DNA from: a phage
DNA: 64,000 bases
Reading direction: 5' to 3' (one strand)
Sequence record: PZ452612.1
The translations under genes and the position numbers were made by a program. Under the pieces are notes generated by a model. The model was not told where the DNA came from. It ran no database searches and worked only from the letters and a program-made list of their open reading frames with translations. Positions 3,772-43,204 of the stretch are shown here, in pieces (the first letter of the stretch is position 1; the number at the start of each line of letters is the position of its first letter).

Positions 3772-3811
3772 ATTTCTCTCATTTAATTAGTTTACCGTCC
3801 ATGACATTATA

Positions 3812-6523
3812 TCAAAAATCGAACATATCGAACAGAGATGCTTTCTTCTCGTAATCGAGTTTCGCTGCTGATGTGAATCCTTCAAGTGGTTTAATAAATG
3901 TCTTCTCAAGGAGAACAGTGTAGTCCATCCAATGAAGTACGTCATCTTTAATTAAATCTGTGATTTCAGTACCAGAAGGCCATGCGATACATTTATCACC
4001 GAACGGGTTTCCTTCACGTAAAGGCAGAACATATACTTTTTCACCTTCTACAACTTGTGGAGCATCAATATTACCTTTGATAGCTCTGTTATATGTCAGA
4101 ATTCCACGAATATGGAACGGACATTTAGGACCAGGGAATCCACCTACATCATATTTAGCAATGTTATTCGCAGAAGATACCGACGCGATGCTAATATAAT
4201 TCAATTGACGGAATTCTTTTTCAAACTCTTTAAAATATTCTTGTAATGATTCTTCACCTTCTTGAAGCATACGACGAATACATTCTTTAAGAGCTTTCTG
4301 TACTGCTTTAGGGGTCGAAGATTTCTGAGTCTCTAGACCCATGATTTTGAGTTTAGGCTCAGCGTAACGAGTACCTTCCATATCCCACACGTTTAATGCG
4401 TAACGTTTCTTACCAGTCCAGAATCCACCAATACCTTTAGAACCGAGCGGAGGACCAGCGATAGCTTCTCGGTCCATGAACATTAAGTGTTGTTTATTGT
4501 TCATGTATTCACACATTTCACGGAAACCTCTATCAATAGCAGGTTCCATACGTTCACGAGCGAACTTATCTAAGAAGTCTACCCAATGGTTGGTATCACG
4601 GAATTTAGATTCACCAACCTTATCGATAATTTTATCAGCAGATACGTAAATAGAGTCTGTATCACCATAAAGAACGAAAGCTTCACCTTCTGTACCACAA
4701 ACTTCGTTCAGATATTCATTAACTTTACGTTCAATCCACTGTAAAGCCATTTGACCAAATGTTGTGATTGCAGTAGCATTACGCAAATCGTAATAACGGA
4801 ACCAAACGTTGCCAAGTGCACCATAAAGTGAGTTGATAAGCAATTTACGGTTAATTTGTGCAGTCATACCTGCAACTTCAGTACGTTGAGCTCTAAACAA
4901 CATTTCATTAAGAGATTTAGCAGACAACTTTTTAATCTTTTCTTTAATCTCGTCAGTGAAGTCGAAACGATAATCAACATCTAATGGTTCGTCAACAGAA
5001 AGATTAGGATTATGCAACGCCTCTTTAATTATTTCACCATTACGTTGAGCCGCAAGCATATAACCTTTATGTTCTTTACGTTGATTAAAGACCTTAGTGA
5101 TTTCAGTTGGAACTACACCATCACGGTCTTTATAATACATCATGCCATTAGGAGAACAACTGTACACATCTGAAGGACGTTCAGCGATTGCGTTAATATA
5201 ATCATGCAGTGGAGCTACTTTAAACGTTCCTGCTATTGTTTCCGGGCTAATATTCACTTGGCGAATAATACTTGGATACAGAGATGTAAGGTCGAAACTC
5301 ATTACATATTTGTATCGATTTGGAATAGGTTCCTTAACAAAAGCGCCAGGATAAGGTTGAACCGGGTGAGAACGACCTTGTGGAATCACCTTGTTCTGCT
5401 CTTTAAGGCTATTAAAAATAATAGCATCCCATGTTTTAATTGGGCTAAACACAGATTGAATCTGTATCTTAGCATAATAACCCATGTCCAAACTCAAGTT
5501 GATGAACTGACGCTTAGCATCAATTTGCAATACACGATACACGTCGATAATGTTATAAGAAATATATCGTTGGTGATTGCTTTCACGAAGCTTAGAAATA
5601 GGGCCGTCATATTTCAGTTTACCAACGTTCAATTCAAATTCTGAAATGTAATCTAGAGAATACGACGGTTGATTGGTAAAAGAGAATTTTTTGTAAAGGT
5701 CGATATAATCAAGAACAGAGATACCGAACAATGTAATGATTTCACGAGAACCATACATGTTTTCGATAACTTTAACACGAGTTTTACGATGCGGTGATAA
5801 ACGTTTCGCAGTAGATTCGCCAAAAATATTCTTGATTCGGTTATACACATATGGAATATCAAATGACTCAACGTTCCATCCAGTCAAAATGACAGGAGTT
5901 TTCTGTTGCCAGAAGTTGAGATATTCCATCAACAATTCTTTTTCGTTATCGAACGGCATATAAATGATTTTATCGATAATTTCAGATGGAACTTCATCAC
6001 CGCCTTGTTCTTGAAGCTTAGCAGCGATTTCAATAGACCATTCTTCTACATTACCATATGGAGAATTCAATAGATCAAATACGTAGAACCTGTCGTCAAT
6101 TGAGTCATAATGGGTGATAGCATCAATCGGATGTTTTGCTTGTGATGGCTCAGGGAACCCATCCGGAGATGTTACTTCGATGTCGAAGTTAGCCACACGA
6201 ATTTTTGTATGGTCGTATTTGATTTCATAGTTATAAGTGTCAGACAAATACGCCAATTTGAAATCGTCCATGCCAAGTGCTTCAAGTCCGATATCTTCCA
6301 TGCGTTTAATCCATTGGGAGGCATCACGCATATTAGCGAACAACTTACGAGTACACGGCTTACCGTAGATATCGAAATATTTCGTAGCCTGACTTTCCGG
6401 ACAATGAGCAAACAGTGATGGTTTATATTCTACTTCACGAGTACGTTCACGGCCATTAGAATCGATGTAACGTTCAAAAATTGAATCACCAATCTGTTCA
6501 ACCGTTAAGTAAAATTCTTTCAT
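3812..6523 (-). CDS. 43: DNA polymerase gp43 (family B, with 3'-5' exonuclease)
   Basis: 903-aa ORF; motifs FDIEV (exo I), YGDTDS (pol motif C), KLLINSLYGALG; sequence matches my recollection of RB69 gp43. Confidence 0.97.
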   Translation of the reverse strand: MKEFYLTVEQIGDSIFERYIDSNGRERTREVEYKPSLFAHCPESQATKYFDIYGKPCTRKLFANMRDASQWIKRMEDIGLEALGMDDFKLAYLSDTYNYEIKYDHTKIRVANFDIEVTSPDGFPEPSQAKHPIDAITHYDSIDDRFYVFDLLNSPYGNVEEWSIEIAAKLQEQGGDEVPSEIIDKIIYMPFDNEKELLMEYLNFWQQKTPVILTGWNVESFDIPYVYNRIKNIFGESTAKRLSPHRKTRVKVIENMYGSREIITLFGISVLDYIDLYKKFSFTNQPSYSLDYISEFELNVGKLKYDGPISKLRESNHQRYISYNIIDVYRVLQIDAKRQFINLSLDMGYYAKIQIQSVFSPIKTWDAIIFNSLKEQNKVIPQGRSHPVQPYPGAFVKEPIPNRYKYVMSFDLTSLYPSIIRQVNISPETIAGTFKVAPLHDYINAIAERPSDVYSCSPNGMMYYKDRDGVVPTEITKVFNQRKEHKGYMLAAQRNGEIIKEALHNPNLSVDEPLDVDYRFDFTDEIKEKIKKLSAKSLNEMLFRAQRTEVAGMTAQINRKLLINSLYGALGNVWFRYYDLRNATAITTFGQMALQWIERKVNEYLNEVCGTEGEAFVLYGDTDSIYVSADKIIDKVGESKFRDTNHWVDFLDKFARERMEPAIDRGFREMCEYMNNKQHLMFMDREAIAGPPLGSKGIGGFWTGKKRYALNVWDMEGTRYAEPKLKIMGLETQKSSTPKAVQKALKECIRRMLQEGEESLQEYFKEFEKEFRQLNYISIASVSSANNIAKYDVGGFPGPKCPFHIRGILTYNRAIKGNIDAPQVVEGEKVYVLPLREGNPFGDKCIAWPSGTEITDLIKDDVLHWMDYTVLLEKTFIKPLEGFTSAAKLDYEKKASLFDMFDF

Positions 6524-9979: not shown

Positions 9980-11668
9980 TTATGAAACAGTCATTACAGT
10001 AAATCGTCCAACTTTGCTCATTTGAAGATGTTGTCCATAACGTTGAGGGTCATGGTCTCTATGAGAAATAATGAACACGTTAGTATTTTGTAAACTTCCA
10101 AGAATGGTATCTATAGCCTTAACAGCCTCAGAATCTACAGCGCCGTCAAAAACTTCGTCAAGAATAAGAGTGTTGATTTTAACACCAGAGACCTTTTCAG
10201 CAATATCTCGCCATGTAAACAACAATGCGATATCGATACGTGCCTTTTCACCTTGACTAAATGAAGCATAACTAAAATCTTCACGACCACGTGATTTTAT
10301 AGATTCATTGAATTCTTCATCAATAGAAAACACGTAATCGGCTTCCATGATTTTAAGATAATGGTTAATCTGCTTGTTGAACAGAGGCACATATTTTTTA
10401 ATGATAGCACCTTTAATACCAGAATCTTTTAACATATCTGTGATAATACCACGATGGTATTTTTCAAGAACGATATCCGATTTTGTTTTAATGATTTTAT
10501 CAAGTTCTTTTTGAAGCAAAGCTATCTCATCGGCATGGTCGATAAATTCCGCCGAGGCTTGTTCTATTGCAGCTTTAACTTTCTTAGCTTTATCAATAGT
10601 GGCAATCATTGCTTGTTTCTTGGTACGAATATCAGATGCAAGGTCCTGCTTAGTCTTAACATTAGCTCTATATTCGTCCACTAGGACACTCAGATTATCT
10701 CTGTGGCAGGTAAGTTGCTCGAATGAGTGATTACATTCATGAAGCTTATCGGTAATCTTAGAGACAATAGGGTCACCCTGGTGCAACTGTGATGCGCAAG
10801 TAGGACATGTACCGCCATCATGATACATCTTAATAACTTTGTTATATGAGTCAATTTTAGATTTAATCAAGAATGCTTCTTGTCCTATCTTGTTGAATGC
10901 CTCAGTAGGGTCTTCGTCAAGAACGATATTAAGTAGACGCTCGTTAGCTTCTTCGATTTCTGCTTTTAATGACCGAGCTTCTTTGGCTAGGTCGTCGTAC
11001 ATATTCTGTAGACGCGCTACATTATCACCAGATAATTTCTTTTGACGTTCGATGTTCTCATTATAAATCTTAATTTGTTGGATAATACCATCTTTCTTGG
11101 CATCGAGAACTTGTCCCTGGGAATTAAGTTCTCGAACTTGAGACTTATTGATTTTATCCATTTCAGCGAGTGTGCCAACTTCTAATAAGTCTTCAACAAG
11201 CTTTCTGCGAGCAGGGGTGCTAAGAGCCATGAAAGGGGTATACCCTGCCGTCCCAAGCACAACGATTTGTTTAAAAGACGCGTATGACATTCCGATGCTA
11301 CGTTCAAATTCTTCTTGGAAGTCACGACTGCTGGCAGATTCATCAAGACGAACACCGTCAACGGAGATTTCGAAAATATTGGGCTTTTGGCCACGTTTAA
11401 TGAAGTATTTTTTACCATCGAATTCCATCCAAAGCTCAACTAAGAGCTCTTTCTTGTTCGTGCTATTAATGATTTGTCCTTTCTTAACATCACGAAATGG
11501 TTTACCGAAAAGTCCGAAAGTGATGGCTTCTAACATCGTAGATTTACCACCGCCGTTTTTACCAGTGATTAATGTCTTTTGGACTTTATCTAATTGGATA
11601 TCAATAGGATTCCCACCTACCGACATGATGTTTTGATAACGAACACGATTTAATTTAAATGATTTCAT
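9980..11668 (-). CDS. 46: Recombination endonuclease subunit gp46 (Rad50/SbcC-like ATPase)
   Basis: 562 aa; Walker A GKNGGGKST, central coiled coil, CPTC zinc hook-like motif, C-terminal ILDEVFDGAVD. Confidence 0.95.
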   Translation of the reverse strand: MKSFKLNRVRYQNIMSVGGNPIDIQLDKVQKTLITGKNGGGKSTMLEAITFGLFGKPFRDVKKGQIINSTNKKELLVELWMEFDGKKYFIKRGQKPNIFEISVDGVRLDESASSRDFQEEFERSIGMSYASFKQIVVLGTAGYTPFMALSTPARRKLVEDLLEVGTLAEMDKINKSQVRELNSQGQVLDAKKDGIIQQIKIYNENIERQKKLSGDNVARLQNMYDDLAKEARSLKAEIEEANERLLNIVLDEDPTEAFNKIGQEAFLIKSKIDSYNKVIKMYHDGGTCPTCASQLHQGDPIVSKITDKLHECNHSFEQLTCHRDNLSVLVDEYRANVKTKQDLASDIRTKKQAMIATIDKAKKVKAAIEQASAEFIDHADEIALLQKELDKIIKTKSDIVLEKYHRGIITDMLKDSGIKGAIIKKYVPLFNKQINHYLKIMEADYVFSIDEEFNESIKSRGREDFSYASFSQGEKARIDIALLFTWRDIAEKVSGVKINTLILDEVFDGAVDSEAVKAIDTILGSLQNTNVFIISHRDHDPQRYGQHLQMSKVGRFTVMTVS

Positions 11669-30963: not shown

Positions 30964-31002
30964 GGTAGGACTACTATAACATAGTCCTACCAAGATGTAA
31001 AC
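30964..31002 (-). promoter_or_regulatory. Early promoter GTTTAC...TATAGT embedded in palindrome GGTAGGACT/AGTCCTACC
   Basis: One of three copies of the core aggactactataacatag (others at 41046 and 41374). Confidence 0.5.
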
Positions 31003-34041: not shown

Positions 34042-34580
34042 TCTTTTATTTCCAGTAGTTTATTTGATTTAAGGTAATTAGCCTTTTCTAGGACTTCAGA
34101 AGCATATTTACTTCCAGCACTTGTCTTCCATCCCGCATTATATGAGGATATGGCTTTTCTTATATCCCCGTTATGTATATTTAACCAATAAGAAAATTCG
34201 ATATAAGCCCATCTGGCTGAATTAGACCGCTTAGATAGCATTTTCTTAATTTGGGCATCAGTCATATTATAACCAAGCTGGTTAATTCTTGCCCTCATTG
34301 TTGGTAGATAGTTTTGGAACATTCCATACGCATGGTGACCTTTCTTATCTTTAAGATTAATACCGGCAGATGATTCTTGCCATAGTATTGCGGCCATTAT
34401 GTATCCAAGTCCTTTCTTATGCATATTTTCATGCGTTTTAAATTTTCCATCCTTAGAAAACTGTTCCCCAAACTGATAAGCATAATTCAAGTTATCGAGT
34501 TGGACATTACTAAAAGTATGCTCGGAGCTATGTGCTGATAACGAAAGAGCAAATAGACCAGCGAGTAGTGCTTTTCTCAT
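34038..34580 (-). CDS. Secreted lytic transglycosylase (SLT-domain)-like protein
   Basis: 180 aa; signal peptide MRKALLAGLFALSLSAHS; motifs LWQESS, GMFQ, SSYNAG resemble SLT family. Confidence 0.55.
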   Translation of the reverse strand: MRKALLAGLFALSLSAHSSEHTFSNVQLDNLNYAYQFGEQFSKDGKFKTHENMHKKGLGYIMAAILWQESSAGINLKDKKGHHAYGMFQNYLPTMRARINQLGYNMTDAQIKKMLSKRSNSARWAYIEFSYWLNIHNGDIRKAISSYNAGWKTSAGSKYASEVLEKANYLKSNKLLEIKE

Positions 34581-34588
34581 GTTTACCT

Positions 34589-35047
34589 CTAGATTTTAAT
34601 CACTGCTTTAGAAGCTTTTCCTGGTAGTCGTTTACTGTTAATAATAGCCATTCTGCATTGAAGAGTCTTCATTTTGAATGCTGGATTTTCGCGACAAACT
34701 GTAAGTCCTAACCAAAGATTTCCATCAGTTATTTCTAAACGGCCTGGGCGATATTCGACACCTTCGACAAAATCTTCATCAACATCTGGACGGGCTGGCA
34801 TTGATAAAAATTCTGCAACTTCTTTAACATGATTTTTTACTTTATGAAATAATTCAAAAACGTAATTCTCATCTATTTCTCTCTGGATGGCACGATCTAA
34901 GAGATGTTGAGAATACTTGATATGAAAGCCTGGTAGTCCAAGAGACTTTGCAGCATCTTTTATACTGGCATTTATTTTGCGGAACTCCGTTTCAAAGATT
35001 CGACGGAGTTTATTGCGGCGGATAAAAACGTCTGAATTGATAGTCAT
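34589..35047 (-). CDS. regB: Endoribonuclease RegB
   Basis: 152 aa; MTINSDVFIRRNKLRR...HIKYSQHLLDRAIQREID...RPGRLEITDGNLWLG matches T4 RegB as recalled. Confidence 0.85.
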   Translation of the reverse strand: MTINSDVFIRRNKLRRIFETEFRKINASIKDAAKSLGLPGFHIKYSQHLLDRAIQREIDENYVFELFHKVKNHVKEVAEFLSMPARPDVDEDFVEGVEYRPGRLEITDGNLWLGLTVCRENPAFKMKTLQCRMAIINSKRLPGKASKAVIKI

Positions 35048-35055
35048 TTTGATTT

Positions 35056-35104
35056 CTCCTCTAGTTGACAGGTCTATAGTAACACAACTAGAGGAGAAGT
35101 AAAC
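35056..35104 (-). promoter_or_regulatory. Early promoter (GTTTAC...TACTAT) inside a 12-bp inverted repeat whose 3' arm contains the regB SD
   Basis: Arms ctcctctagttg (35056-35067) and caactagaggag (35085-35096) are perfect reverse complements; gtaaac at 35099-35104. Confidence 0.5.
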
Positions 35105-35403
35105 TACTCTTTGAAAGGAATTAACTTTTTAACTGCTTTAGATACTTCGTCACGAACCTGGTGGAAGTTCTTGAGCTGTTCAAGGCGTTGTTCGTAATAC
35201 GCAATCTCATCTTCTTCAAGACAATCGTCAGCGTCTTCTTTCAGATATGCCTTGTACTCATTAAAGAGGGCCCATAGGCGGTTCTCAAAGTCATCAAGGC
35301 TTTGAATTTTCTTGTGCTTCGGAACAAGGCCAAAAGGATTGCTTTCAGTTATGCGTCGAGATGCTTCATAATGAGTTCCAAAGCCTGATAGGATTTGAGC
35401 CAT
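35104..35403 (-). CDS. Hypothetical protein
   Basis: Track ORF trimmed to internal ATG ([13 protein letters not shown]...) overlapping the upstream stop. Confidence 0.45.
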
Positions 35404-35648
35404 TAGTATTTTTCCTCTGGTTGAAATACCGCACGACAAGCCCACATACTAGCTTCCTTTAGGCGTTCTTTAGCACAGTTCAATTGGGACAAAGCTGTCA
35501 AAGCTTCAGGAGTATTCGCAGACAACGCTTCTTCCGCCAAGGCATCGAAAATAAGCCCTAATCGAACTTCTGCATCTTTAATAGCGTTCACTTTACCGAT
35601 TTTATCATCGGTATGCGGCTTGTAGCCTTTGATGTCTTCAATCGACAT
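35403..35648 (-). CDS. Hypothetical protein
   Basis: Track ORF 35403..35816 trimmed to internal ATG ([12 protein letters not shown]...) just past the upstream stop. Confidence 0.45.
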
Positions 35649-35862
35649 AAGGAATTTCCTCATCGGTGGCAAGGTCATATTCGACCAATTGGATAGGCTC
35701 ATTAATACCATATCCACGTACAGTGATATCGGTTGTCGGATATTTTCCAGTAATATCACCCATTCTAAATGCTTCAGTGAATGATTGCTCGCCTGAGCAA
35801 CTAAACCAGGCGGCAAAACATTTTAAAACATCTTCAGACCCTTCTATAATCAATTTAGCCAT
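35638..35862 (-). CDS. Hypothetical small acidic protein
   Basis: 74-aa ORF. Confidence 0.45.
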   Translation of the reverse strand: MAKLIIEGSEDVLKCFAAWFSCSGEQSFTEAFRMGDITGKYPTTDITVRGYGINEPIQLVEYDLATDEEIPYVD

Positions 35863-36224
35863 TATAGACTCTCAGTAAAGGTACGAGCGATAACGTCGCG
35901 CTGCTGTTCCGGGGTCAGAGAGTTAAAGCGAACTGCATAACCGGATACACGGATGGTCAGCTGTGGATATTTTTCCGGATGCTTAACTGCATCTTCCAGA
36001 GTTTCGCGACGCAGAACGTTAACGTTCAGATGTTGACCACCTTCAATTTTAACTTTAGGTTGATGTTCAATTTCAATTTCACGGGCATTCAAACCGTAGA
36101 AAATTTCCGGGTCTACAATAGCGTCTTCTTTAAAAGTCTTAGAGACGATAATCCGGGCTTGAGTACCGTCTTCAAAATAAATAGTGCCTTTATGTGCACC
36201 TTCAAGAATTTGATATGCTTTCAT
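35862..36224 (-). CDS. Autonomous glycyl radical cofactor GrcA/YfiD-like protein
   Basis: 120 aa; C-terminal ~64 aa ([61 protein letters not shown]) carries the RVSGY glycyl-radical motif and matches E. coli GrcA as recalled; this part is visibly GC-rich. Confidence 0.8.
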
Positions 36225-36230
36225 ATAACC

Positions 36231-36539
36231 TCAATTAGAAAATAAATTTATCCAAGTTTTTTCTTTAATCAAAAATGGGTCAGAACTAAACGCCATTAAA
36301 CTTTGAGTGATTAATCCCTTAAATGGCCCATCAATAAATTCCATTTTGAAATGCGGAATACTAGTCATCAACCGTGCGTTAGGAGCAGTACAAAGAACCT
36401 GCTGCCCTGCGAACGGACCTTTAGTCAAACGGTATCGTTTAGGTTTAAAATGGTAAATCTCGTAATTTTCTACAAGAGCCCTTTTATTGCATACTGGGCT
36501 GTTATAACAATATTCAAAAACTTCAATAGTGGTCATCAT
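36231..36539 (-). CDS. Hypothetical protein
   Basis: 102-aa ORF. Confidence 0.45.
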   Translation of the reverse strand: MMTTIEVFEYCYNSPVCNKRALVENYEIYHFKPKRYRLTKGPFAGQQVLCTAPNARLMTSIPHFKMEFIDGPFKGLITQSLMAFSSDPFLIKEKTWINLFSN

Positions 36540-37075
36540 TGCATTCCAATCACAAAAAATTGAGGACGAGCATTACCGCCGATGCAATATTTGCTTTTGC
36601 AGCAGTACTGTACTGTTTTAATATGGACATTGTAAATCTTATCCATATCAGGAGCTTTAATAGGCTCGTCAATTATATACAGAATACGAGAAAGCGTTAA
36701 TCCACGGAATTTAGAACCTTCATTGCCAATAAAACTACGAACAGAATCAGTAAATAAACGGAATCGAATATCATCGCTAGAATAACGAGAAAATTCTTTT
36801 TCAATGTTACCAGCAGAAATTTTAGCATAAGCTGAAGTATTAGAAAGAACAATAACTGTTCCGCCATCATACAGCCAATTAGCAGCAAAGTTAGTCACAG
36901 CAATTGATTTACCGGATTGTCTGCCACCGTCTAAACGAAGTGTACAGTACTGCTTGAGTACGTCTTCAAACGGTGGGATATAACCGTTCTTACAAATTTC
37001 TTCTACTCTAGCATCAGAATGGTGTGTAAAAGCATTCATCAGGGATAGATAAGGTCCAGTTAAAAATGTTCTCAT
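36536..37075 (-). CDS. Hypothetical protein
   Basis: 179-aa ORF. Confidence 0.5.
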   Translation of the reverse strand: MRTFLTGPYLSLMNAFTHHSDARVEEICKNGYIPPFEDVLKQYCTLRLDGGRQSGKSIAVTNFAANWLYDGGTVIVLSNTSAYAKISAGNIEKEFSRYSSDDIRFRLFTDSVRSFIGNEGSKFRGLTLSRILYIIDEPIKAPDMDKIYNVHIKTVQYCCKSKYCIGGNARPQFFVIGMQ

Positions 37076-37248: not shown

Positions 37249-37578
37249 TTATACTCTAGGCTTTTGAGCTTGTTTGGTATTGGATTCCCATGCGGCTTTG
37301 GTAATTTTGTTAGTGGCATAACCAAAGGCATTAGATAGAACACCTTTAGAGTTGAATACATCCAATCCAATAAGTACACCGGCTGTGTTAAATTTAGGAG
37401 CAAAGTACGCATTAGTTTTAGAAAGAGCTTTTTTCAATTCAGGGTCTTGAACCAAACCATCAAAAACGCCTTTACTATTTACTTTATATGTTACTTTGGG
37501 ATTTTTACCTTCTTCGATAGCAGCTTTCTGTTCCGCAGATAATGTAACTTCAGTGATAAACTCCTGATATGTTTTCAT
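37249..37578 (-). CDS. Internal-protein-like (capsid-targeted) protein, ipII position
   Basis: 109 aa; N-terminal MKTYQEFITE matches the T4 internal-protein capsid-targeting leader; Lys/Ala-rich. Confidence 0.6.
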   Translation of the reverse strand: MKTYQEFITEVTLSAEQKAAIEEGKNPKVTYKVNSKGVFDGLVQDPELKKALSKTNAYFAPKFNTAGVLIGLDVFNSKGVLSNAFGYATNKITKAAWESNTKQAQKPRV

Positions 37579-37586
37579 TTTGTTCC

Positions 37587-38000
37587 TTAGTAAATTGATT
37601 TACCATAGTATTTGTACCAAGTCGGACGTTGAGCAATTTTTTCATCTAAGCGTGCTTGACTTATCGCAATGGACGCTTCGGACGGGACGTAATTATTACG
37701 AAATTCTACAGGAATGTCGGAAATATCCTGGACTGTCGTGTCCTTGATTTTGAAACCACGTTTCAAGCATTCGGCGATTAGCTCGATTTGACGTAAACGT
37801 AAAAATTCGAGTTTGTCGTAAAAGAATGTTACGTGACCTGTGCCTAAGATAAATGTTGGAGAGATTTTAAAATCCTTTACACGTTTACCGTTTTGAACAT
37901 GTTTACGGACTGCACCAAATACGCGTGGTAATTCACGATACTCAGCCATAAGATGTTGGTCGGACAGTTCAGAAACAAGTGTTAAATTGATACGAGTCAT
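37587..38000 (-). CDS. denV: Endonuclease V (pyrimidine-dimer DNA glycosylase) DenV
   Basis: 137 aa from internal ATG; [35 protein letters not shown] matches T4 DenV as recalled. Confidence 0.9.
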
Positions 38001-38005
38001 AATTT

Positions 38006-38057
38006 CCTCCAAGTAGTTGATGAATGTATAGTATCAAAACTCTTGGAGGAAGTAAAC
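38006..38057 (-). promoter_or_regulatory. Early promoter GTTTAC with inverted repeat CCTCCAAG/CTTGGAGG; 3' arm contains the denV SD
   Basis: Arms at 38006-38013 and 38042-38049 are perfect reverse complements; gtaaac at 38052-38057; the -10 lies in the loop. Confidence 0.45.
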
Positions 38058-38058
38058 A

Positions 38059-38340
38059 CTATTTTTCTGAAGCGCCTGAAATATATTTTTCAAGACGTTG
38101 TTTCATCAGCGAGCCGTTCTTAGCGATTTCTTCCGGTTTATCGCACATACGCAACAAGGCTTCAAGCTTAACGATATCACTGGTGCGCTCAAATTTGCGA
38201 GTATCTATCTTACTGGCAAGTTCAGAAATACGTGCTAATAGACTTTCAGCTTCAACCAAAGCTGCACCTAGCTTAGTTGCAAATGTGTCAGTAGCTTCGT
38301 TAAGAATAGATTCTGATAAAAATTCACTATATGTTTTCAT
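38059..38340 (-). CDS. Internal-protein-like protein, ipIII position
   Basis: 93 aa from internal ATG; [10 protein letters not shown] leader; ATGA overlap with the e stop. Confidence 0.55.
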
Positions 38341-38825
38341 ATATACGCTTTCCAAGTTCCTGTTTTAAATGTTGAGATTACGCGTTTCGCTCGATTAGGT
38401 GTCTGACGGTACCATTTAGATTGGGCTAGATTTACTGCCGCTTCATCCCAACGTTTCTGTTGAAGCATACGAAGAGAATTAGTAAAACCAGCGACGCCTG
38501 CTACACCCATTTGGAAGACCATATTGACCAATGCACATCGACGAACCGCATCTAAAGAATCATATACCGGTTTAAGTTTAGCATTACCCAAGATTCCGCG
38601 AACGGCTTTATCAACGTCTTCATTAAATAGCTTTTCAGCCTCATCAAGGGTAATTGTACCGTTGCATTTACGTCCGATCATTCTGTCAAGTTCAGCTTTA
38701 GCTACGGCTAAAGACGGGTTCTTTGTTACTAAATGGCCTATGCCAATCGTCCAAAAGCCTTCAGTGTCTTTGTATAAAGTCAGTCTAAGACCTTCGTCAT
38801 TACGAAGCATTTCAAATATATTCAT
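38337..38825 (-). CDS. e: Endolysin (T4 lysozyme, gene e)
   Basis: 162 aa from internal ATG; [32 protein letters not shown] with catalytic E/D/T context as in T4 lysozyme. Confidence 0.95.
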
Positions 38826-38828
38826 AAT

Positions 38829-38857
38829 ACCTCCCACGTTTATAGGAGGTATTTATT
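38829..38857 (-). promoter_or_regulatory. SD-sequestering hairpin upstream of e (ACCTCC-10 nt-GGAGGT) with adjacent late-promoter-like AATAAATA
   Basis: 3' arm GGAGGT is the SD; mirrors the known T4 e arrangement. The AATAAATA (minus 38857-38850) deviates from TATAAATA at position 1. Confidence 0.45.
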
Positions 38858-38859
38858 AC

Positions 38860-39318
38860 TTATAGGATGGTAGTGAGCACCTTATATAATGATTTACCCA
38901 TTACATATTCCCATTGAGAAGGTTTAATTAAAGCGAATGCATCAAATTCAGGAATCTGTCGTCCGTCTGGGAATGTATGATAGGAATTACAAACACTGTT
39001 TCTGAATTGCTCGTGCTCTACAGGGATGGTATATAGGAACAGATGAATATTCTTATTGTCTGAGTAATGATGTTCACCTAGGTCTTTCAGGAAGGCAGGG
39101 TCATATTGTGTAAACCCAGTTTCTTCTTCGCATTCACGAATAGCGGCTTCAATAGGAGATTCGCCAGGTTCGACACGGCCTTTAGGAATATCCCACCGAT
39201 GAGTTAATGCACCTTTAGGACGAGAACCAGTTACACGCCCCATGAATAACTCTTTATCTTCGGTAAGGAAAATAATACCGGCTGATAGCTCTTTCACTTT
39301 ATTTTTCTTACTCATCAT
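38860..39318 (-). CDS. nudE: Nudix hydrolase NudE
   Basis: 152 aa; Nudix box GRVEPGESPIEAAIRECEEETGF. Confidence 0.85.
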   Translation of the reverse strand: MMSKKNKVKELSAGIIFLTEDKELFMGRVTGSRPKGALTHRWDIPKGRVEPGESPIEAAIRECEEETGFTQYDPAFLKDLGEHHYSDNKNIHLFLYTIPVEHEQFRNSVCNSYHTFPDGRQIPEFDAFALIKPSQWEYVMGKSLYKVLTTIL

Positions 39319-39559
39319 CTCGGTCCCATGATTTGGCCATTAATTCGGACATAAATTCTTCAATGCGCGTTTCTTTAGATGGACTTTCACTATTAGAGAC
39401 CGCAAGTTTGTAATCTGCAATAGGACAGAACATATCAAGGTCCGTATTAAGGTCGTCTTTGATTTTTTCTTCTGACACATCTTTATCGTATGTGTACAGA
39501 TAACTATCACATGATTCTGATTTAATGTAAATTGCTATACTCATCTCAAATTCCTGCAT
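39308..39559 (-). CDS. Hypothetical acidic protein
   Basis: 83-aa ORF. Confidence 0.45.
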   Translation of the reverse strand: MQEFEMSIAIYIKSESCDSYLYTYDKDVSEEKIKDDLNTDLDMFCPIADYKLAVSNSESPSKETRIEEFMSELMAKSWDRDDE

Positions 39560-40032
39560 TCGGTAATAAAACGTTCAACTTCATTATTCTTGGCCTTTAT
39601 CTTGTCTTTATGTTCTTGTAAACTACTTTTAATAAGATTAATAATGATGGCGGCGGTACCGCCGCCAATGATGCCACCAACAACACTTATGATACTAGAT
39701 GCTAATAAGATAGCAATAATATCAACAAAACTGAAAGAACTCACCTTAGTACTAAAAAACCATACCGACGGTGCAAATATAATCCATCCTGTTATCCATT
39801 GGCACTTATTGAAAAACTTTTCAAGATCAGCTTGAGTTGTTCGTATTACTTCATCGATAGGTTGATATCCATTAATGTATCTGTTCACAATAATACCTGC
39901 TGGCTGGTCGATTTTAAATTCTTGGCAAATACGTTTCACTAAGTAGGATGGACATCCTGTCCAATCTACTGAATAGTATGAAATACCTTCATTGCCATCG
40001 TCTATATTAGACCAATATGTTTTGTTAATCAT
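39541..40032 (-). CDS. Membrane protein (C-terminal TM helices)
   Basis: 163 aa; hydrophobic WITGWIIFAPSVWFF and IIAILLASSIISVVGGIIGGGTAAIIINLI. Confidence 0.5.
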   Translation of the reverse strand: MINKTYWSNIDDGNEGISYYSVDWTGCPSYLVKRICQEFKIDQPAGIIVNRYINGYQPIDEVIRTTQADLEKFFNKCQWITGWIIFAPSVWFFSTKVSSFSFVDIIAILLASSIISVVGGIIGGGTAAIIINLIKSSLQEHKDKIKAKNNEVERFITECRNLR

Positions 40033-40718
40033 TACCAGCCTTCCATAGGGAATTCCAGATAAACTTGGGTATTGACACGAATTTCATTGGTAATCTTTTT
40101 AACTCGGTCTGTATTACGAGATACACGTCCGAACCAACGCCATCCATTACTAATTGCACGAGAACCAGTGTGCCATGTTTGCCAATCAAACTGAAGAAGA
40201 GTACGATCTGGAGCTTCCCATTTCTCTAGTTCGCCTTTTTCGATTTTTTCGAGGACTTCTTTGTGCCACTGGCGATAGATAAGTTCGCCATCAGGAATCT
40301 GACTGAACTCTGCAGTTCCTGTTGCAAAATGAGTAGGACACACATCAGCGTTAACAAGACCAAGAATATGTTCAGACAAATAGCGAGGATTGTCATAGTC
40401 AGGTTGTCCTGCAGTAATAAAATGTTGACCAACCGGAATATCCGGGCGTGGTACGTCATCATGGTGATAACCAGGAATAGCAGGATACCAACCAGGCATC
40501 AGCATATGGACTCGTGAATCAAATACTACATCCGAGTCTTTCCAATCGTCAGGGAGATTTTGGATAAAGCTACGAGTAATTGGACCGCCGTTATCAAAAG
40601 CAAAATTCAAATCGCAATTAAAGAACATAGGCTCGTTTTTAATCTGGTCATTTTTAATCGCATGAGCAAAACCACCTACTGCACGAGCTTGACTATTAAA
40701 CACTTTAGAACTATTCAT
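40032..40718 (-). CDS. Hypothetical protein (228 aa), His/Trp-rich
   Basis: ORF track; GYHHDD and later His residues; no confident family assignment. Confidence 0.5.
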   Translation of the reverse strand: MNSSKVFNSQARAVGGFAHAIKNDQIKNEPMFFNCDLNFAFDNGGPITRSFIQNLPDDWKDSDVVFDSRVHMLMPGWYPAIPGYHHDDVPRPDIPVGQHFITAGQPDYDNPRYLSEHILGLVNADVCPTHFATGTAEFSQIPDGELIYRQWHKEVLEKIEKGELEKWEAPDRTLLQFDWQTWHTGSRAISNGWRWFGRVSRNTDRVKKITNEIRVNTQVYLEFPMEGW

Positions 40719-40719
40719 A

Positions 40720-41025
40720 TTATTTTCCTCGACATTCTTTAATGAAATTTTCTAGATTGGTAGATTCAATAGCTTTTTTACGAGCTTCTGCGTGTTCTTC
40801 TTCAGACAATTTACATTTATAATTGACCCAGACGTTATGGTCGAAACTAGTCGTGGCATATAATAACAATGCTCCAACGAATAGCAAAAACGGCGATAAG
40901 AATACAAAACCAGGAACACCATCCATACTGTAAGCCTTTTGTAATACTGCAACAGAAAGAGCTGCGTAAAAAAGTGATACAAATATTGTTAAAAGACCAA
41001 TTCGGTTGGTTTCGCCTAATTTCAT
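40720..41025 (-). CDS. Small membrane protein
   Basis: 101 aa with two hydrophobic helices; own GTTTAC promoter upstream. Confidence 0.5.
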   Translation of the reverse strand: MKLGETNRIGLLTIFVSLFYAALSVAVLQKAYSMDGVPGFVFLSPFLLFVGALLLYATTSFDHNVWVNYKCKLSEEEHAEARKKAIESTNLENFIKECRGK

Positions 41026-41045
41026 AATATTCTCCTCATGTTTTA

Positions 41046-41083
41046 ATAGGACTACTATAACATAGTCCTATCATCATGTAAAC
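41046..41083 (-). promoter_or_regulatory. Early promoter GTTTAC...TATAGT within palindrome ATAGGACTA/TAGTCCTAT
   Basis: Repeat copy 2 of core aggactactataacatag. Confidence 0.5.
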
Positions 41084-41085
41084 TA

Positions 41086-41349
41086 TTAAATACCAGCTTC
41101 GCGTTTAACATAATCGACGTAAGCTTGGATAGCTTTCTTGCTGGTAATTTTTACCTGGCCACGACCATTGCCTTCTTTAGAGTTTTTCTTAACAACTACA
41201 TTACCATCTTTAACACCCCATACATGGACGTAAGTACCGATGTTTCGGTCGTAGAACATTGCATGGTCATTGTTGTAAGAGAATGATTCATAGTTCTCTG
41301 TCAAAGCAAAAGATTCGGATTCTGCGATAAATTCTTTATACGTTTTCAT
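41086..41349 (-). CDS. Internal-protein-like (capsid-targeted) protein
   Basis: 87 aa; MKTYKEFIAE leader; own promoter. Confidence 0.55.
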   Translation of the reverse strand: MKTYKEFIAESESFALTENYESFSYNNDHAMFYDRNIGTYVHVWGVKDGNVVVKKNSKEGNGRGQVKITSKKAIQAYVDYVKREAGI

Positions 41350-41373
41350 TTATTTTTCCGTTTGGTTGTTTTG

Positions 41374-41411
41374 ATAGGACTACTATAACATAGCCCTATC
41401 AAGATGTAAAC
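41374..41411 (-). promoter_or_regulatory. Early promoter, repeat copy 3 (one mismatch)
   Basis: ataggactactataacatagccctat plus gtaaac at 41406-41411. Confidence 0.5.
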
Positions 41412-41414
41412 TAC

Positions 41415-41702
41415 TTACAGAAGAGTTTTTGCAATAATTTTAAGCTGAGCTACAGAAATATGCTTAGCTTTAAACAGTGCGGTCTCTTCAGCCGGAGAGA
41501 TAACAATAGTAGCGCCATCTTTCTTAGCAGACCATCCATCCCCTAAGTAAACAGTACCTTTTACTTCTTCGCCGTCAACCAGACTAATCATTGGTTTACC
41601 CTCACGTCCTTTATTTGCTTTAATAACTTCGGAAGTAAGGGTTGCTTCGGTCAGAGTAGAAACGTTAGCAACAGGTGATATAAATTCTTTATAGGTTTTC
41701 AT
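41415..41702 (-). CDS. Internal-protein-like (capsid-targeted) protein
   Basis: 95 aa; MKTYKEFISP leader; own GTTTAC promoter upstream. Confidence 0.55.
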   Translation of the reverse strand: MKTYKEFISPVANVSTLTEATLTSEVIKANKGREGKPMISLVDGEEVKGTVYLGDGWSAKKDGATIVISPAEETALFKAKHISVAQLKIIAKTLL

Positions 41703-41779
41703 TTTATTTCCTTGAGGTTGTTTATTTGATAGGATGATAGTATCACACCATCATACTTATGTAAACTGTTTTGTGAAAA

Positions 41780-42465
<686 letters not shown>

Positions 42466-42469
42466 TTTA

Positions 42470-43204
42470 TTACCTTAAGATTGTTTCAATTTTAGAATAA
42501 AGCTCTTCTAAAGAGCCGTCGTTTGTAATAACTAAATCGCCTTCTTCAATAGGCAACCCAGCTTCTGTAATATGTTTATCAGTGGATTCCGTACCAGAGC
42601 GAACCACATGAATAACTGTAGCACCCATCGCTCTAGCGGTTTCCATTTCATGGACTTGGCGTGTATCGGTTACAACATAGTAATCGAAATCACTTCCAAT
42701 ATAATCCATATAGTTTAATGCAAAAAGTTTAACCCAATACATACGGTCAAATAAATTAACGACAACATCCGTACCGAGGGCTTGCATAAGACGGCGGATT
42801 GACCATGTGTCGTTGATATTATTTATAGCTTCACGCAGGGCTTCATACGGTTTAATATCTAGATATGAATACCCACCTTCTAAGGATGATAATACTTTAA
42901 CATTATTAATTGGTAAATATTGACTTTGTAAATAAATTAGCGCTTCTTCCAATAATTCAATAACATCCAACTTATTGAGATTTAATGGTGTTTCACGGTC
43001 ATATCCGACACCTTCAAAGTATTCGTATTTCAACTCTGTGAATACATTAGGGTTTTCGGCATGTTTACGTCCCCAGGCTATTGCTAGAGCGTCTTTAATC
43101 GGATATGCCAATTGGTATTTTACGGATTTAAAGTTTGAATTGATGTAATCAGCAGTGGTGTCTTTACCACTACGTTTGACGCCACTTAAAAAGATTAGCT
43201 CCAT
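42470..43204 (-). CDS. 1: Deoxynucleoside monophosphate kinase gp1
   Basis: 244 aa; P-loop FLSGVKRSGKDT. Confidence 0.9.
   Translation of the reverse strand: MELIFLSGVKRSGKDTTADYINSNFKSVKYQLAYPIKDALAIAWGRKHAENPNVFTELKYEYFEGVGYDRETPLNLNKLDVIELLEEALIYLQSQYLPINNVKVLSSLEGGYSYLDIKPYEALREAINNINDTWSIRRLMQALGTDVVVNLFDRMYWVKLFALNYMDYIGSDFDYYVVTDTRQVHEMETARAMGATVIHVVRSGTESTDKHITEAGLPIEEGDLVITNDGSLEELYSKIETILR

Follow-up and report, generated by a model that had tools for sequence, protein, structure and literature searches.

The 64-kb stretch of phage DNA analysed here (the window) carries four genes that open with the capsid-targeting leader of the T4 internal proteins. We consider it likely that they are T4-type internal protein (ip) genes of an RB69-like Mosigvirus, whose products are packaged in the phage head, cleaved and injected as anti-defence proteins. 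The window is 100% identical to NC_041864, Escherichia coli O157 typing phage 6 (160,570 bp), which belongs to the RB69 group of Mosigvirus within the Straboviridae. All four genes lie on the minus strand and are named by position: the 37249 gene (37249-37578), the 38059 gene (38059-38340), the 41086 gene (41086-41349) and ipI (41415-41702). Two of them were already known as internal proteins from RefSeq, where the 38059 gene is labelled 'internal head protein' and ipI 'internal virion protein'; the 37249 and 41086 genes both carry the label 'hypothetical protein'.

The leader MKTY[QSK]EF opens exactly four open reading frames (ORFs) in the 64 kb, with ATG codons at 37578, 38340, 41349 and 41702 and products of 109, 93, 87 and 95 amino acids (aa), respectively. 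At the DNA level, the window holds four matches to the pattern ATGAARACNTAY, where 0.40 would be expected, and none of 100 shuffles reached four. A scan of all ATG, GTG and TTG codons on both strands, requiring at least five of eight matches to MKTYQEFI, returned the same four starts and no others, and a blind repeat search grouped the four stretches of leader and ribosome-binding site as one 30-nt family. The original prediction, made from the letters of this stretch, had proposed four ORFs with the internal-protein leader, and motif count, shuffles, start-codon scan and repeat search all confirm it, with one correction at the 38059 ORF: its listed start was an upstream TTG, and the true start, for 93 aa, is the ATG at 38340, whose overlap with the lysozyme stop codon reads ATGA. 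That the motif recurs by chance in ORFs that are not genes has practically no probability left. The short length of the ORFs, and nothing else, speaks for such a coincidence; it is already refuted by the shuffles, by a Shine-Dalgarno sequence in front of every hit, by conservation of the ORFs in 36 to 497 phage genomes, and by the finding that one ORF belongs to a Pfam family with a solved structure.

Past about residue 11, the four proteins cannot be aligned with each other or with T4 IPII and IPIII. Homology of the 37249 or 38059 protein to T4 IPIII or IPII was considered and rejected, the BLASTP similarity being confined to residues 1-13; likewise, phrog_2667, used to check for T4 Ip2/Ip3, matches at the N-terminus only. 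The earlier claim of complete divergence beyond the leader thus stands among the four proteins and falls for ipI, which is an orthologue of T4 IPI.

The evidence for this orthology is extensive. The 95-aa ipI product matches PF11634 (IPI_T4) over residues 20-95 at 1.3e-50 and 169.7 bits (gathering cut-off 25 bits), and residues 1-76 of PDB 2JUB, the solved structure of mature T4 IPI (IPI*), align to the same residues 20-95 with 72 of 76 identical. A cut by the gp21 protease is predicted after residue 19, between LTE and ATL, which would release a 76-aa IPI*, and the site coincides with residue 1 of 2JUB. From the MKTY start onwards the protein is identical to RB69 IpI. Judged by its sequence, 41415-41702 is IPI itself, a precursor that shares with T4 IPI the 19-residue leader layout, the cleavage point and the locus adjoining gene 57B; it differs by four mature substitutions, by Y4 in place of F4 in the leader, and in the DNA it would accompany, which carries arabinose here and glucose in T4. 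The other three window proteins share with ipI only the first 10 residues or so. RB69 IPI is reported to differ from T4 IPI at four residues and to prevent GmrSD restriction of RB69, and the GmrSD of CT596 is reported to cleave arabinosylated RB69 DNA too and to be blocked by RB69 IPI (PMC6024577; also PMC13326640). We are highly confident that the copy in typing phage 6 is a GmrSD inhibitor. The suggestion that the payloads are adapted to another DNA sugar finds no support in IPI, given that the mature form is only 4 of 76 residues removed from that of T4 and that the GmrSD of CT596 reportedly cuts RB69 DNA as well and is blocked by RB69 IPI. Directly upstream of ipI, gene 57B (41780-42235, minus strand) encodes an Acb1 phosphodiesterase directed against the cyclic oligonucleotide-based anti-phage signalling system (CBASS; PF23474, 1.3e-58), labelled 'RNA ligase' in RefSeq.

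For all four proteins, the leader retains the residues that matter in T4. The first 10 residues of T4 IPIII suffice for packaging, and T4 IPI has a longer, 19-residue variant of the leader (PMC9026906); the mutational map of Mullaney and Black, as summarised there, names residues 4 and 7 as the chief targeting determinants and residues 8 and 10 as those for processing. Y4 and F7 are found in four of four window proteins. The processing motif [IL]-x-E occupies residues 8-10 in three, as ITE (37249), LSE (38059) and IAE (41086), while the ipI product has ISP at 8-10 and LTE at 17-19, the same layout as in T4 IPI (ITE at 17-19). Additional sites are predicted at LNE15 of the 38059 protein and LTE18 of the 41086 protein. 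With targeting and processing residues present, and with denV-e and 57B-tRNA, the two classical ip loci, as the sites of the genes, the assignment to the internal-protein class made in the original prediction holds. The leader codons vary synonymously among the genes (T3 as ACA, ACA, ACG and ACC; E6 as GAG or GAA; I/L8 as ATC, TTA, ATC and ATA), which argues for selection on the leader peptide and not merely for recent gene conversion.

The partners of the leader are annotated in NC_041864 beyond the window, namely portal gp20, gp67, gp68, the gp21 protease, the gp22 scaffold and gp23, and gp21 of typing phage 6 is 88% identical to T4 gp21. The predicted mature proteins have masses of 7.9-10.7 kDa and, for three of them, computed isoelectric points (pI) of 9.0-10.0. 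From these properties we infer packaging, processing and injection in typing phage 6, and all four are very probably packaged and processed internal proteins. T4 IPII and IPIII are alike in having the common leader MKTYQEFI.E, a cut after E10, a place in the denV-e locus and small, mostly basic mature proteins; the similarity of their payloads to the window proteins is nil.

The 38059 gene (38059-38340, minus strand) encodes an Ip5-family internal protein of 93 aa. Its product matches phrog_3499, 'internal head protein', at 1.2e-46, and shares 47-49% identity with the ip5 products of T2, RB32 and VR26 across 90% of its length (49% with T2 Ip5). The leader is predicted to be cut after residue 10 and is followed by SILNE, with the second site at 15. 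T2 Ip5, by contrast, has an IPI-type long leader (MKTFKEFATKTTITE) and is encoded in the ipI locus next to 57B, whereas the typing phage 6 gene has a short leader and adjoins the lysozyme gene e (38337-38837, minus strand). The ATGA overlap between its start and the stop of e makes it probable that translation of the Ip5-like gene is coupled to that of e. The start of e lies within a hairpin (ACCTCC...GGGAGGT, 38819-38864, minus strand) that would sequester its own Shine-Dalgarno sequence, and late-promoter-like boxes with one mismatch, TATAAGTA and AATAAATA, stand just upstream of this hairpin or inside it; the arrangement is similar to the one known for early/late control of the translation of e in T4. 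In RB69, an Ip5-like copy (6222-6503 of the compared segment) is 92% identical overall to the 38059 protein and carries a natural leader variant, MKTYMNFYQNLSLNE (MKTYMNFYQN), in which Y4, F7 and LNE15 are kept and E6 and [IL]xE10 are lost.

The 37249 gene (37249-37578, minus strand) encodes a 109-aa protein, the orthologue of RB69ORF123c, with the leader MKTYQEFITE and a predicted mature form of 99 aa and pI 9.7. Its family, phrog_3966, has no function attached; it is present in 91 phage records, the Mosigvirus members being more than 95% identical and Dhakavirus-type members about 35%. An exhaustive search of 1.84 billion representative proteins with the mature protein turned up a single genuine distant relative, P0012, likewise leader-bearing (MKTYQQFITE). 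Giant repeat proteins (MBG_2, cadherin-like/Big_9 and collagen) were considered as a clue to the fold and discarded, their scores being summed over 10-18 repeats; for the MBG repeats, a profile-profile comparison gave a probability of only 9%.

The 41086 gene (41086-41349, minus strand; 87 aa) is rare, being found in 36 of 50,697 phage records and in two clusters among the 5.8 billion proteins of the index searched. Its leader reads MKTYKEFIAE/SESFALTE/, slashes marking the predicted cuts, and is followed by a basic payload of about 69 aa; phrog_13302 matches at residues 16-87 only. A leaderless 73-aa homologue of this payload, 66% identical, occurs in Dhakavirus (IME08, IME341 and others) between gene 52 and motA, with its own early promoter and a terminator hairpin in front. 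The second predicted cut of the 41086 protein, between LTE and NYES, falls where the region in common with the leaderless homologue begins. One and the same domain would thus reach the cell by two routes, injection and early synthesis, and its occurrence with and without a leader favours a cytoplasmic role at the onset of infection over a structural role in the head. An exact 12-codon insertion or deletion between the two forms was considered and not retained: the gap is clean in the protein alignment, but the DNA is too diverged to place its boundaries or to tell gain from loss. In IME08 the leaderless homologue (2495-2716 of the compared segment) is unannotated.

We propose that the four genes act as follows. 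Their precursors would be made late as well as early, and the leader MKTYxEF, with Y4 and F7 as its key residues, would bind the gp22/gp67/gp68 scaffolding core, thereby enclosing the protein in the prohead. There gp21 would cut after [LI]xE, at residue 10 in three of the proteins (with possible second cuts at 15, 18 or 23) and at residue 19 in IPI. The freed proteins, of the size given above and mostly basic, would stay in the head, enter the cell with the DNA and act before any phage gene is expressed. IPI* would then block GmrSD-type type IV nucleases, which also cut the arabosylated cytosine DNA of Mosigvirus, and the most likely task of the other three is to counter these first-response nucleases too, each disabling a variant of its own. 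Homologous recombination in the leader DNA and in repeated early-promoter/stem-loop cassettes would shuffle the repertoire, both from phage to phage and from one ip locus to the other.

Work on T4 supports this scheme by analogy. Beyond the leader, T4 Ip1, Ip2 and Ip3 have nothing in common, and the GmrSD that each inhibits is a different one, Ip2 (IPII) and Ip3 (IPIII) acting on the variants of ECOR21 and ECOR17; the authors propose an anti-GmrSD role for all genes of both ip loci (Silas 2025, PMC12373910). IPIII acts in trans without its leader (PMC9391042), and BrxU, of the GmrSD family, cleaves the arabinosylated DNA of Mosigvirus (PMC13390438). The support by analogy is now strong. By that analogy, each of the three non-IPI proteins could be an anti-restriction protein, a proposition that we regard as evenly balanced. 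The idea that the four are injected anti-defence effectors therefore agrees with the current published view and is established for IPI, one of the four; for the other three it draws on analogy. Like Alt of T4, P22 gp7/16/20 and the N4 virion RNA polymerase, internal proteins travel in the head and enter the cell together with the DNA. Alt, however, is an enzyme processed at both ends, and the P22 and N4 proteins build an ejection conduit, whereas ip products are very small, dispensable and hypervariable.

Several observations weigh against the proposed scheme. The mature Ip5-like protein has a pI of 6.3-8.1, near neutral and unlike the classical basic internal proteins. No exact late promoter stands directly upstream of the e/ip5/denV/37249 group. 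The three non-IPI ORFs have no Pfam match; against the PDB, their payloads gave only noise at E > 0.3, and against the index of 5.8 billion proteins only two to five close clusters each, so that neither informative homologues nor a link to nucleases specifically emerged from these searches. AlphaFold2, run on three-sequence alignments (the greatest depth obtainable), returned mean predicted local distance difference test (pLDDT) scores of 51.6 for the 41086 protein and 46.9 for the 37249 protein, and the models are too weak for use. A literature search found no virion proteomics or genetics for Mosigvirus ip genes except IPI; on the named RB69 ORFs it found nothing.

Three other readings have to be weighed for the proteins apart from IPI. 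They might be purely physical components, serving as filler of the scaffold core or neutralising the charge of packaged DNA. The mature 37249 and 41086 proteins are small and basic (pI 9.4-10.0), like the T4 internal proteins long assumed to bind DNA, and T4 IPIII/IP0 mutants show aberrations in head assembly (PMC9026906). The same was once believed of T4 Ip2 and Ip3, which are now specific GmrSD inhibitors (PMC12373910), and neither the presence/absence polymorphism of ip genes among near-identical phages, which fits accessory arms-race genes, nor the leaderless occurrence of the 41086 payload as an early gene sits well with a structural task; we judge a purely physical role improbable. Somewhat less remote, but still unlikely, is that the proteins are injected effectors with targets other than type IV nucleases, such as other immediate-early defences or functions of host takeover, for which the packaged ADP-ribosyltransferase Alt offers a parallel. 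Their payloads are unrelated to Ip1-3 and hold nothing that points to nucleases specifically, and the anti-CBASS enzyme next door means that the locus is not purely one of anti-restriction. All three characterised T4 proteins nevertheless hit GmrSD variants (PMC12373910), and products of about 70-100 aa that are free of motifs are too small to be enzymes.

The remaining reading concerns the leaders themselves. One or more of them could be relics of recombination, attached to a protein that goes unpackaged or uncleaved and acts only after its synthesis in the cell. The leader DNA is itself a recombination substrate, the same payload is found with and without a leader, the leader of the Ip5-like protein of RB69 is altered, and early transcripts can cover all four genes. 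Set against these points, Y4, F7 and an [LI]xE site are kept in four of four proteins, and the synonymous variation indicates purifying selection; relic leaders are, in our view, very improbable, slightly more so than a physical role. Packaged, cleaved and injected anti-defence proteins accordingly remain the best explanation of the four genes.

Expression of the genes appears to draw on several signals. A T4-early-type promoter of ipI (GTTTACA-17-TACTAT, with TG before the -10 box) lies at 41737-41765 on the minus strand. The 41086 gene is preceded by a promoter/stem-loop cassette (41367-41413, minus strand) whose promoter reads TTTACA-17-TATAGT (41410-41382) and in which a 13-bp hairpin surrounds the -10 box, the RNA fold having a free energy of -18.9 kcal/mol and z = -5.0. 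A second copy of the cassette, 91% identical over 47 nt, lies downstream of the 41086 gene (41039-41085, minus strand; -18.4 kcal/mol, z = -5.1) and drives an ORF outside the ip class at 40720-41025, and a third is at 30965-30991, also on the minus strand. Across the three copies in the window the hairpins measure 12-13 bp, with energies of -18 to -21 kcal/mol and z of about -5, and in the third copy pairing is preserved despite changes on both arms (GATAGG/CCTATC to GGTAGG/CCTACC). The statement that two ip genes have their own near-identical early promoters needs to be divided: ipI and the 41086 gene do each have one, but these are merely similar, the ipI promoter resembling that of the 41086 gene only at the -35 region and past the -10 box, and the near-identical pair consists of the 41086 promoter and its copy at 41085-41039.

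The 37249 and 38059 genes are without promoters of their own; the former starts 9 nt past the denV stop and the latter is coupled to e through its ATGA. A search for late promoters directly in front of the individual ip genes found none; its hits were the one-mismatch boxes at e and a single exact T4 late-promoter box, TATAAATA, at 42820-42827 upstream of 57A-57B-ipI-41086, the sole exact one on the minus strand. The late transcripts that packaging requires may come from this box, and late expression of the ip genes is plausible; it would be needed because proteins of the head core have to be produced late as well.

The cassettes recall a known class of element. Promoter-early stem-loops (PeSLs) mediate modular shuffling in T4-type phages (Arbiol 2010; Comeau 2014). 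Like them, the cassettes in typing phage 6 are repeated units of about 47 nt that combine an early promoter with a strong hairpin, flank a variable ORF and mark a deletion endpoint; unlike them, the hairpin encloses the -10 box rather than standing beside the promoter, and a terminator function is not evident because there is no U-tract. The hairpin around the -10 box of the 41086 promoter may itself function in regulation or recombination. Elements at ip loci have been called PeSL analogues before, and 'more than 30' ip variants have been noted (Comeau 2007, as cited in PMC2839356; see also PMC4122927).

Gene order was compared with that of T4, RB69 and T2, and a three-way alignment that included the sibling, typing phage 3, defined a junction. 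Typing phage 6 and RB69 are homologous across 57A/57B, the promoter and the first 23 nt of the leader sequence, where the match breaks off; past the break, RB69 has ORF156c (Ip7-like) and typing phage 6 has ipI. Homology returns over ipI and stops at the next start codon, beyond which RB69 has tRNA.4 and typing phage 6 the 41086 gene and the second cassette. The leader and ribosome site of the 41086 gene in turn match the start of RB69ORF124c, a gene of the other ip locus, at 90% identity over 62 nt. About 8.2 kb of typing phage 3 (e.3-e.8, both tRNA genes and tRNA.2-tRNA.4) is missing from typing phage 6, and the junction of the deletion falls inside the 47-nt cassette at 41039-41085, where the left flank matches one copy and the right flank the other (positions 1931-2045 and 10100-10215 of the compared typing phage 3 segment). 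The deletion probably arose by homologous recombination between two cassette copies, because its junction lies in the repeated 47-nt cassette, and the behaviour of the cassette at this point is that described for PeSLs. RB69 contains three leader genes absent from typing phage 6, ORF124c (5147-5419 of the compared segment), ORF125c (MKMYQEFIIE; 5483-5743 of the same segment) and ORF156c (resembling T2 Ip7; 3784-4110 of a further segment), so that even phages with flanks about 96-97% identical do not carry the same ip genes.

Further neighbours complete the region. The ORF driven by the second cassette copy (40720-41025, minus strand) belongs to the RB69ORF133c family and encodes a probable membrane protein of 101 aa. 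Beside it, and conserved as well, the ORF at 40032-40718 (minus strand) encodes a 228-aa protein of the RB69ORF132c family (phrog_1843), called '2OG-Fe(II) oxygenase' in one related record. At about 34500-37075 of the window, RefSeq attaches the note 'Endoribonuclease RegB T4-bacteriophage encoded' to several unrelated ORFs, the homologues of vs.1, vs.7 and vs.8, which looks like annotation spill-over.

Our finding is correct but rediscovers a well-described system and leaves the established picture unchanged. Repoila and Krisch (Repoila 1994) are reported to have described the polymorphic ip loci and the idea of injected anti-restriction proteins, the leader and IPI work is that of Black and colleagues, and the anti-GmrSD functions were shown by Silas et al. 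What is modestly new comprises two unannotated members, one of them rare, a payload pair with and without the leader, and a clean example of cassette recombination. In the 41086 protein, a payload that has switched its mode of delivery (injected in Mosigvirus, early in Dhakavirus) may inhibit a first-response defence, such as a subtype of GmrSD or some other system that senses arabinosylated-cytosine DNA; this is a tentative proposal and on balance a doubtful one. If true, the payload would be a natural experiment on the value of pre-loading an inhibitor.

Of all phage products, internal proteins are the first that host immunity encounters. The repertoire of an O157 typing phage with arabinose DNA yields three concrete candidate inhibitors, one of them in injected and non-injected forms, and typing phages 6 and 3 provide a natural example of promoter/stem-loop repeats and leader DNA serving as the recombination joints at which that repertoire is reshuffled.

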